Below, one piece after another: positions 53,254 through 54,447 of a stretch of 64,000 nt of DNA. Origin of the DNA: Escherichia phage vB_EcoP-CHD5UKE1; the sequence record NC_070989.1; one strand, given 5' to 3'. Below the pieces are notes generated by a model. It saw nothing but the letters and a program-made list of their open reading frames with translations, had not been told where the DNA came from and did no database searches. The translations under genes were made by a program, and so were the position numbers. How positions within the stretch are numbered: the first letter of the stretch is position 1; each line of letters begins with the position of its first letter.

Positions 53254-54447
53254 TTAGTAGTTTACAACAGTGCCGTCATTCAAGGTAAGGCTATTAATCT
53301 GCAACACACGACCAAGCTGACGATCACTAATTGGTGCGTTCCAGCCAGATCGGTAGAAGTTACGACCGCAGAAGAAAACGATTACATTACTTGCTACAGT
53401 TGAACCGTTTTCAGGATGCTTGATGTTAGCGATGTAATAACCACGACGCAGATTACGACGGGTTACAGGGTTGATCTCTAACCCTTGCTCTTCCACTTGC
53501 ATTGTTTCAGGAACAGGCTCCGAAGATTCTTCAACAACTGGTTCAGCTGTCAATGCAAAGTTCTCGTCATCTGCTGATTCAGCAAACTCTTCCACTTCTT
53601 CGACAGGCAGTTCGTAAGCAACACGATAGTCAGGTTCAACACCAGAGAAGCTCTTAACAAACTCAACGATGTTGTGAGTGTAAGTTTCCAGAGTTGTTCC
53701 AGTCAGGCCCGGAGCTGTATTAACTTCCAGAACCCAAGCGTTAGTACCTTTGCTAATCAGGTCAACAGCACCGAAGTTCAAACCCAGAGCAGATACAGCT
53801 TTGTGGGCTTGAATCAGAACCTGATCAGGCGGCGCATCTTGGAAGTTTGAGGAATAAACCCAACCAGTATGATGGTTTCGAACGTCTTCACGATAGGAAG
53901 GATCTTCACGATAACCATTACGGCGAATCTTTTTCTGAACATAGGTGATAACACCTTCAAACACATGAACACGCCATTCACGACGTGGGCCTAGAATGCC
54001 ACGGGTATAGAGAGGGGCGGGAGCTACACCTTCACCCTGAAGACGAACAGTGATACCTTCTCCAGAATGACCATTCAGAATAGCACGTTCATAAACAACA
54101 CTATCCAGAGTCCACTCTGAAGCCTGAGCAGCACTGTCTGTGTATTCTACAGTATGCACCCCAGCAGCTTCCAAAGTTTGAAATGCTGTCATTTTGTTAG
54201 CGGCTCGATTCAAGGCAACCACAGAGTTCAATACAGTTGCACCGCCAAAGAAAGCATCATTATATCGACGGTTTCCATAGTTGACAACAATATCACCAAC
54301 TCGAGAACGATAACGAGAGCCTTCTGATACCAGAGACATTACGTTAGCATTCAGTCGAAGTTCCTGAATCTTAGCGTTAATTGTAGAAGTAAGTTCACGA
54401 ACTGAATCAGAAGGGCCATAAGGAAGAATACGGATACGAGTAGTCAT
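53254..54447 (-). CDS. ATP-grasp family ligase, RimK/glutathionylspermidine-synthase-like (397 aa)
   Basis: C-terminal AVDLISKGTNAWVLEVNTAPGL matching the ATP-grasp E-x-N metal-binding signature. Confidence 0.55.
   Translation of the reverse strand: MTTRIRILPYGPSDSVRELTSTINAKIQELRLNANVMSLVSEGSRYRSRVGDIVVNYGNRRYNDAFFGGATVLNSVVALNRAANKMTAFQTLEAAGVHTVEYTDSAAQASEWTLDSVVYERAILNGHSGEGITVRLQGEGVAPAPLYTRGILGPRREWRVHVFEGVITYVQKKIRRNGYREDPSYREDVRNHHTGWVYSSNFQDAPPDQVLIQAHKAVSALGLNFGAVDLISKGTNAWVLEVNTAPGLTGTTLETYTHNIVEFVKSFSGVEPDYRVAYELPVEEVEEFAESADDENFALTAEPVVEESSEPVPETMQVEEQGLEINPVTRRNLRRGYYIANIKHPENGSTVASNVIVFFCGRNFYRSGWNAPISDRQLGRVLQINSLTLNDGTVVNY

Follow-up and report, generated by a model that had tools for sequence, protein, structure and literature searches.

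ATP-grasp enzymes use Mg-ATP to turn a carboxylate into an acyl-phosphate, which is then attacked by an amine to form an amide bond. An enzyme of this superfamily has been on public record since 2008 in phage phiEco32, whose gp80 (record EU330206, phi32_80, ABY52881) is annotated as 'ATP-grasp enzyme; putative amino acid ligase/glutaminyl transferase'. The genes around it have been discussed since 2009-2013 as a peptidoglycan or gamma-glutamyl module (Iyer 2009; Hardies 2013): a 'peptidoglycan modification cassette' is described as conserved in RIO-1, phiEco32, 7-11, PA11, tf, LUZ24, PaP3, and CW02 (PMC5498523), and a 'putative peptidoglycan modification module' may act against superinfection or ready the wall for lysis (PMC11945000; PMC10580990, which cites Iyer 2009). 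This cell-wall role, the sole proposal for the cassette, has recurred as a hypothesis in reports of phage genomes over some 15 years. Here we compare with these systems the corresponding ATP-grasp gene of Escherichia phage vB_EcoP-CHD5UKE1 (NC_070989.1), which lies in a 64,000-nucleotide stretch of DNA that we analyzed as a whole and refer to as the window.

The gene is an ATG-started open reading frame (ORF) on the minus strand, listed at 53254..54447 among the ORFs of the window, and encodes a protein of 397 residues. Both the gene, which is already annotated, and the cassette have been described before, and the phage itself is 98.6% identical to the sequenced isolates Bas91 (LorandFenyves_Bas91) and vB_EcoP_SU10 across 52000-60500, with 100% coverage, and 97.6% identical to phiEco32 over the same region (megablast, phage collection); on this similarity we assign the window phage to Kuravirus (Gordonclarkvirinae). 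The window protein shares 98% amino-acid identity with the phiEco32 copy (locus L002) over residues 1-397, and because that ortholog already carries the ATP-grasp annotation, neither the gene nor its family assignment is new. The orthologs in phiEco32 (gp80), SU10, Bas90/Bas91, and LUZ24 (gp21), which make up PHROG 2599, are identical in kind and in synteny; those of LUZ24 type lack the linker and the C-terminal beta-barrel found in the window protein and otherwise show no material difference.

What the present analysis adds is the restriction of the family to phages, an Amidoligase_2/glutamine amidotransferase (GATase) core among its gene partners, a predicted active site with a single Lys-to-Arg shift, the lack of support for a ribosomal protein S6 label, and, in Kuravirus-type phages, a tethered beta-barrel, not assigned to any class, that is found together with DUF7195 and p323. 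The cassette, which comprises five to eight ligase/amidohydrolase genes, occurs in at least 310 isolated phages, therapy candidates among them, as well as in over 500 uncultured viral contigs. Its function is now tractable, since E. coli K-12 carrying a restored O-antigen is a host for the relatives Bas90 and Bas91. The gene and the parts of its product are as follows.

53254..54447, minus strand: ATP-grasp ligase gene, ortholog of phiEco32 gp80, 397 residues (phrog_2599, E 1e-187)
53638..54447, minus strand: catalytic ATP-grasp module, residues 1 to ~270, with pre-ATP-grasp, central, and C-terminal subdomains
53704..53769, minus strand: predicted Mg2+/phosphate-binding block AVDLISKGTNAWVLEVNTAPGL, residues 227-248, with D229, E241, and N243 (aligned to RimK)
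53458..53595, minus strand: acidic disordered linker, residues 285-330 (from model confidence, alignment A1, and composition)
53257..53457, minus strand: C-terminal small beta-barrel domain, residues ~331-397, with a conserved G-Y...G-W-[NDE]-x-P motif

Fold, active site, and family placement

Searched on its own, the window protein yields only sub-threshold Pfam matches (Dala_Dala_lig_C, E 0.005; RimK, E 0.01). A collection of 5.8 billion proteins contains 643 relatives, and profile matches were counted per member in an alignment of 31 sequences (A1). Pfam RimK is matched by 27 of these 31 members (best E 9e-09) and the Ddl C-terminal domain by 18, while the NCBIfam models rimK_fam and MptN are each matched by all 31 (MptN best E 1e-12) and the CofF model by eight. 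The family profile also recovers RimK structures (E ~5e-6), and E. coli RimK aligns end to end with a probability of 98.1% (hhalign, E 9e-13, 259 columns). An earlier note had predicted a RimK-like ATP-grasp ligase at this position. An AlphaFold2 model built from A1 has a mean predicted local distance difference test score (pLDDT) of 85.5, with disorder limited to residues 290-328; its structural matches are Ddl, RimK, ArgX, and LysX at E ~1e-12 (Foldseek), and it contains the pre-ATP-grasp, central, and C-terminal subdomains of the ATP-grasp fold. Membership in the ATP-grasp superfamily is firm: profile and fold searches alike place the protein inside it, opposite to the outcome that the earlier note had named as refuting its prediction.

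The active site was compared by aligning the window protein with E. coli RimK and with 81 homologs from viral contigs, which gave the following equivalent residues and their conservation among the homologs.

K85, aligned with RimK K100: 81/81
E157, aligned with RimK D187: 81/81
R159, aligned with RimK R189: 81/81
N191, aligned with RimK N213: 69/81
G195, aligned with RimK G217: 79/81
D229, aligned with RimK D248: 81/81
E241, aligned with RimK E260: 81/81
N243, aligned with RimK N262: 79/81

The last three residues belong to AVDLISKGTNAWVLEVNTAPGL, the motif in which the earlier note had recognized an ATP-grasp metal-binding signature; the motif is present in this ORF, and the conserved alignment of D229, E241, and N243 with their RimK counterparts bears out that assignment. 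The same block had been called C-terminal, which is correct insofar as it ends the catalytic core, but about 150 residues come after it and it is not the C-terminus of the protein. The Gly-rich loop G126-x-x-G129-x-G131 corresponds to RimK G145-G150. Core ADP contacts of RimK include N213 and K141 (PMC10092738). The predicted active site is intact apart from a Lys-to-Arg shift, in that Arg121, invariant in 81/81 homologs and situated one position upstream of Ala122, may functionally replace RimK K141. The gene apparently encodes an active, catalytically competent ATP-grasp carboxylate-amine ligase, to judge from these residues.

Within the superfamily, the protein can be called RimK-like at the level of the clade only, as it scores under every curated RimK threshold: 31.6 bits against a cutoff of 143.4 for TIGR00768, 25.2 against 331 for PRK10446, and 15.9 against 21 for Pfam RimK (PF08443), for which some distant homologs carry a precomputed match. 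The LysX model gives weak matches, in only 4 of the 31 A1 members. The earlier description as a RimK-like ligase thus holds insofar as the protein lies closest to the RimK/LysX/ArgX/MptN/CofF clade, and does not hold as an identification with RimK. The family-specific invariant residues R121, H161, K173, and W196/F, together with a 14-residue insert at residues 176-189, mark a distinct family, and we classify it from these comparisons as a phage-only family within that clade, separate from RimK. The R2K clade (CDC123, R2K.2/DUF4343), whose members are likewise phage-borne ATP-grasp proteins and are predicted peptide ligases in phage-host conflict, was considered and rejected as a home for the protein, since R2K_2/DUF4343 (PF18299) finds only 4 weak matches among the 31 members, with a best E of 0.0018, against 27 and 9e-09 for RimK. 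The label 'ribosomal protein S6 glutaminyl transferase', which is attached to PHROG 2599 and to many RefSeq records, is an inherited name without support; no link to S6 was seen in the gene context of the ATP-grasp gene across 80 viral loci.

The cassette, its conservation, and its distribution

These 80 loci were drawn from more than 517 in IMG/VR that encode relatives, and were surveyed with iterated hidden Markov models (HMMs), one per window protein, within 10 kb of the ATP-grasp gene. The neighbors recur as follows.

Primase-helicase: 76/80 loci
Amidoligase_2: 73/80 loci
GATase: 69/80 loci
COOH-NH2 ligase: 55/80 loci
p205: 43/80 loci, always between the COOH-NH2 ligase and Amidoligase_2
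Gamma-glutamylamine cyclotransferase-like (GGACT): 29/80 loci

Gene order is near-fixed in the 80 loci, with the ATP-grasp gene last before the primase-helicase. The window has all five cassette members, namely the ATP-grasp, Amidoligase_2, COOH-NH2 ligase, class-II GATase, and GGACT genes, at 52133-59534, and shares their order with phiEco32 and the IMG/VR loci; in the LUZ24-like phage UFV-P2 the order is identical (PMC3890496). The core partners of the ATP-grasp enzyme are Amidoligase_2 and the N-terminal nucleophile (Ntn) GATase, not the GGCT-like enzyme. The pairing with a GGCT-like enzyme that had been proposed for this locus does occur, but of all the links it is the least constant, found in 29 of 80 loci against 73 for Amidoligase_2 and 69 for GATase. 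The accompanying suggestion of gamma-glutamyl chemistry fits the neighbors, which comprise two GCS/glutamine-synthetase-like amidoligases, an Ntn glutamine amidotransferase with glutamine-binding residues, and a GGACT-family cyclotransferase.

At least 310 records of the phage collection contain the gene, including 120 from Pseudomonas, 92 from Escherichia, and 22 from Vibrio, with further hosts in Aeromonas, Proteus, Salmonella, Cronobacter, Pseudoalteromonas, Klebsiella, Sinorhizobium, and others; all identified hosts are Gram-negative. A scan of cellular genomes covering 185,579 bacterial and archaeal species, one genome each, returned only ~15 true relatives, nearly all of them either on tiny contigs or on metagenome-assembled contigs of ~47-54 kb that represent phage genomes, and the rest of the matches were unrelated weak ATP-grasp hits. 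No cellular homolog with informative gene context was found among the genomes of these 185,579 species. The family is in practice restricted to phages and virtually absent from cellular genomes.

All cassette genes of the window lie on the minus strand, with the transcriptional 5' end at high coordinates and the cassette running down to the primase-helicase. In that direction, and apart from the ATP-grasp gene itself, they are as follows.

60509-61705, minus strand: p398, unknown function (phrog_13063; 7/80 loci, restricted to larger phages)
59527-60498, minus strand: p323, unknown function (phrog_13102; 10/80 loci, restricted to larger phages)
58728-59534, minus strand: COOH-NH2 ligase type 2, phiEco32-type (Pfam PF14395, E 2.3e-08; phrog_3815)
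58101-58718, minus strand: p205, unknown fold (phrog_4877)
57001-58104, minus strand: Amidoligase_2, a GCS/glutamine-synthetase-like carboxylate-amine ligase (Pfam PF12224, E 4.5e-08; phrog_7469)
54891-56921, minus strand: class-II (Ntn) glutamine amidotransferase-like protein, 676 residues (Pfam GATase_6, E 1.1e-14)
54655-54888, minus strand: DUF7195 small protein between GATase and ATP-grasp (Pfam PF23825, E 4.7e-17)
54450-54674, minus strand: ORF of 74 residues
52999-53247, minus strand: gp79 homolog, 82 residues
52817-53002 and 52554-52763, minus strand: two small ORFs
52133-52552, minus strand: gamma-glutamylamine cyclotransferase-like protein, AIG2/GGACT family, phiEco32 gp77 (Pfam GGACT, E 3.9e-17; phrog_2520)
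51940-52143, minus strand: small ORF
50123-51913, minus strand: primase-helicase, downstream neighbor (Pfam DnaB_C and Toprim_2)

The mechanical ORF list shortens the GATase to 563 residues. We rejected an N-terminal truncation as an artefact of the ORF rule, since the frame is open to an ATT start at 56921, preceded by GGTGGA, from which it encodes a protein of 676 residues beginning M-CGIV, matching the phiEco32 annotation. The family aligns with the GlmS glutaminase domain with a probability of 99.1% (hhalign) and keeps in that alignment Cys1, the Arg of HxRxAT (HSRHAT/HTRWAT), the Asn-Gly motif (VHNG/VHNG), and the downstream Asp. In GlmS, the N-terminal Cys, the Arg, the Asn-Gly pair, and the Asp serve in glutamine binding and catalysis. 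Because all of these residues are retained, the GATase has a complete predicted site for glutamine or a gamma-L-glutamyl group. Weaker matches are to EgtC, a gamma-glutamyl amidohydrolase, and to PurF and AsnB. Four CxxC motifs at residues 440, 487, 512, and 641, within the C-terminal ~240 residues, suggest zinc-ribbon-like modules.

For p205, p323, and p398 there is no Pfam, NCBIfam, or PDB sequence match; p205 has the invariant residues P26, P138, and Y159. Profile searches found no solved homolog of p205, the COOH-NH2 ligase, or Amidoligase_2, and a FlgJ match returned by these searches was discarded as spurious, being weak (E 0.003) and confined to a short stretch. The DUF7195 protein has two conserved motifs, R-K-x-P-M-T..G-C-D-x-L-R-A and P-F-P-T.

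Directly downstream of the ATP-grasp gene lies the gp79 homolog. In phiEco32, gp79 is a characterized middle-gene product that inhibits the sigma70 RNA polymerase (RNAP) and activates the phage sigma holoenzyme. Because the ATP-grasp gene adjoins the homolog of a middle gene, we infer from its position that the cassette belongs to a middle, replication-time transcription unit. The gp79 HMM also matches L006 and L007, phage contigs of 82-88 kb that are more distantly related, but not the 89,916-bp contig L008, and the paper on phage 7-11 reports no gp79 homolog in that phage. The GC skew of the window changes sign near 30 kb, being positive over 1-30 kb and negative over 30-64 kb, and this switch fits the convergent late (plus-strand) and early/middle (minus-strand) transcription arms described for phiEco32-like phages.

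Several other genes beyond the cassette were noted. A separate ORF of 185 residues at 49572-50129 (minus strand) encodes a DNA polymerase 3'-5' exonuclease domain (Pfam DNA_pol_A_exo1) and overlaps the end of the primase-helicase gene, as does phiEco32 gp74. A protein of 472 residues encoded at 48209-49627 (minus strand; phiEco32 gp73) contains the motif GGAVRD...DIDIF, matches the Pfam PolyA_pol head domain below threshold (E 0.0024), and looks like a CCA-adding/poly(A)-polymerase-like nucleotidyltransferase; its GTG start was called upstream of the annotated phiEco32 start, which gives 437 residues. The BASEL paper names a 'nucleotidyltransferase', probably this protein, together with the dCTP deaminase (here at 47666-48199), as a possible clue to DNA modification. 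At 47050-47665 (minus strand) there are three tandem small ORFs of 69, 69, and 65 residues (phiEco32 gp69-71), which have no family match and look like divergent paralogs, sharing a T-R-x-x-A-R motif and a C-terminal Tyr (pairwise phmmer E ~2e-4 in a three-sequence database).

The acidic linker and the C-terminal domain

The catalytic module of the window protein is followed by a linker of 46 residues (285-330) with 14 Asp or Glu and a single Lys or Arg, variable in length and composition among the A1 homologs and with pLDDT below 50 at residues 290-328 of the model. Behind it stands the small beta-barrel, whose distribution was determined by domain-restricted searches of the 80 viral loci. 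The domain was found in 10 of the 80 (individual searches gave 7 to 10), in each case as the very last part of the ATP-grasp ORF, and on contigs of 57-91 kb. Most homologs, among them those of LUZ24-like and RIO-1-like phages, measure 245-285 residues and lack it. The loci with a beta-barrel are exactly those that carry p323, and 10/10 also encode DUF7195, which is present in 11 loci in all (L002-L011 and L016), the eleventh (L016) having neither beta-barrel nor p323. This co-occurrence suggests that the beta-barrel, DUF7195, and p323 form a functional trio. A probable role of the beta-barrel on its long acidic tether, in these larger phages, is to anchor the enzyme to a partner or a target. 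Loci L011 (on a contig of 90,710 bp) and L070 have much longer ATP-grasp ORFs, of 619 and 611 residues, the additional residues lying between core and C-terminus. The C-terminal domain ends in ...VVNY, and a kinship with the tandem ORFs at 47050-47665, which likewise end in Tyr, was considered and rejected, as a profile search of all window ORFs showed no similarity.

A proposed gamma-glutamyl pathway and its alternatives

We tentatively favor a reading in which the ATP-grasp enzyme carries out one step of a cassette-encoded, cytoplasmic gamma-glutamyl 'handle' pathway, because its partners are two GCS-like ligases, an Ntn enzyme with a predicted gamma-glutamyl- or glutamine-binding site, and, in part of the loci, a GGACT. 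The starting points are the observed fold, active-site residues, phage restriction, and gene linkage. The pathway would run in the cytoplasm during the middle, replication-time phase of infection. Amidoligase_2 and the COOH-NH2 ligase would join glutamate, through its gamma-carboxyl, to an amine, and the ATP-grasp enzyme would extend or cap a terminal carboxylate, which would most likely belong to a glutamyl residue. Specifically, gp80 would use Mg-ATP to convert the carboxylate of its substrate into an acyl-phosphate, with which an incoming amino acid, by analogy most likely L-glutamate, would form the amide through its amino group. The Ntn amidotransferase-like enzyme and GGACT would either supply ammonia or remove the gamma-glutamyl group, as EgtC and BtrG do. 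We infer the donor, the acceptor, and the order of these steps.

Several points weigh against this proposal. Our literature search found no experimental or biochemical study of any member of the family or of the cassette. Because the protein scores so far under the curated RimK-family cutoffs, the donor specificity of RimK is not transferable to it, and the canonical ATP-binding Lys, RimK K141, is aligned to Ala122 of the window protein. GGACT is absent from most loci, and the role ascribed to the C-terminal domain is purely conjectural. Furthermore, the closest structural relatives include protein-modifying enzymes, so that the fold would suit a macromolecular target equally well.

A role in modifying peptidoglycan precursors, in which the cassette would equip murein precursors in the cytoplasm with peptide or gamma-glutamyl linkages of an unusual kind to block superinfection or prime lysis, with a Ddl/Mur-like function for the ATP-grasp enzyme, appears doubtful to us. 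The stem peptide of Gram-negative bacteria contains a gamma-D-Glu linkage. The identified hosts are without exception Gram-negative, and Ddl is a consistent secondary match, but one that falls under RimK, ArgX, and LysX in every search. The GATase site would suit L-glutamine or a gamma-L-glutamyl group whose alpha-amino and alpha-carboxylate groups are free, whereas the D-isoglutamate of murein is N-acylated. The cassette was found to have no Mur-ligase, transpeptidase, or envelope-targeting gene. It is a cassette that sits in the replication module, beside the primase-helicase and not beside lysis genes. This is the published reading (PMC5498523, PMC11945000, PMC10580990), and it stands in the literature as a hypothesis only.

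We likewise regard as unlikely that the ATP-grasp enzyme, in the manner of RimK, LysX, or TTL, modifies a host or phage protein for takeover of the host or for regulation, placing residues such as glutamate on its C-terminus or on a side chain, with the beta-barrel directing the enzyme to that protein. The three best structural matches, ArgX, RimK, and LysX, do act on a protein C-terminal glutamate, but the clade also includes the small-molecule ligases CofF and MptN, and the fold by itself is therefore no indication of a protein substrate. A small beta-barrel held by a disordered, acidic tether of 45 residues resembles a macromolecule-docking module, yet about 70 of the 80 homologs lack it. 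The family is phage-specific and adjoins the RNAP-targeting gp79, and Aravind's group has proposed peptide tagging for related ligase systems; the constant partners here, however, are amidoligases of metabolite type. LysX/ArgX systems (PDB 3vpb, 5k2m, 3vpd) use the carrier LysW, and no small ORF with a conserved acidic C-terminus of this kind is found near the window ATP-grasp gene. The candidates sm61, sm69, sm74, sm77, sm82, and sm67 were each rejected as a LysW-like carrier for want of an acidic C-terminus conserved across loci: sm61 ends in Glu in some phages and in Ala in another, and the ends of the other small ORFs are non-acidic or variable.

Gordonclarkvirinae, including the near-identical Bas91, are described as showing remarkable resistance to restriction-modification (RM) systems, with neither a pathway of DNA modification nor an inhibitor of restriction known in them (BASEL, PMC11990801), and nothing seen in the window explains it. 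That the cassette accounts for this resistance by covalently modifying a macromolecule with a gamma-glutamyl or peptidyl group, whether phage DNA or a protein reached through the beta-barrel, strikes us as highly improbable. The narrower version, in which an amino-acid-derived group is placed on phage DNA or on a deoxynucleoside triphosphate precursor and makes the DNA resistant, we consider very unlikely. The ATP-grasp gene does stand immediately upstream of the primase-helicase in 76/80 loci, in a module with ThyX, dCTP deaminase, and polymerase, but this synteny may simply reflect the common ancestry of podophage replication modules, and no DNA-binding, glycosylase, kinase, or base-hydroxymethylase component was found in the cassette. 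Restriction digests also disfavor DNA hypermodification: the DNA of phage tf, which bears the cassette, was cut by RsaI, HpaI, EcoRV, SmaI, and HaeIII and then cloned, and the LUZ24-like, cassette-bearing phage U17 is sensitive to 11/16 enzymes. Finally, it is in our view very unlikely that the protein is a true RimK ortholog and polyglutamylates ribosomal protein S6 of the host, for although RimK is the top sequence-level match and the S6 label is widespread in phage records, the protein falls far short for PRK10446 (25 vs 331 bits) and TIGR00768, shares ~18-23% identity with RimK, and has its own invariant residues and wholly different gene partners, and E. coli has its own RimK.

The gamma-glutamyl handle pathway, to which we return as the reading tentatively favored, has its counterparts among pathways of small molecules. 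Gamma-glutamyl handles or their enzymes appear in glutathione metabolism (GshA, GshB, and GGCT), in ergothioneine synthesis (EgtA and EgtC), and in butirosin synthesis (the ATP-grasp enzyme BtrJ and the cyclotransferase BtrG), and these pathways combine the same mix of enzymes as the cassette, that is, a GCS-like ligase, an ATP-grasp enzyme, and an Ntn-amidohydrolase and/or an AIG2-type cyclotransferase. GshB, CofF, MptN, and ArgX each catalyze a step comparable to the one proposed here for the ATP-grasp enzyme. Compared with RimK of E. coli or Pseudomonas (PDB 4iwx, 5zct, 7qys), to which the window protein is only ~18-23% identical, it has the 14-residue insert at residues 176-189, an additional C-terminal domain, and other gene partners. 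CofF and MptN resemble the window family in sequence as strongly as RimK does; they add alpha-L-glutamate to the F420 glutamyl tail and to tetrahydromethanopterin, respectively, and thereby offer a precedent within the clade for action on small-molecule glutamyl termini, although the window family scores far under their equivalog cutoffs and those cofactors are irrelevant to enterobacterial hosts.

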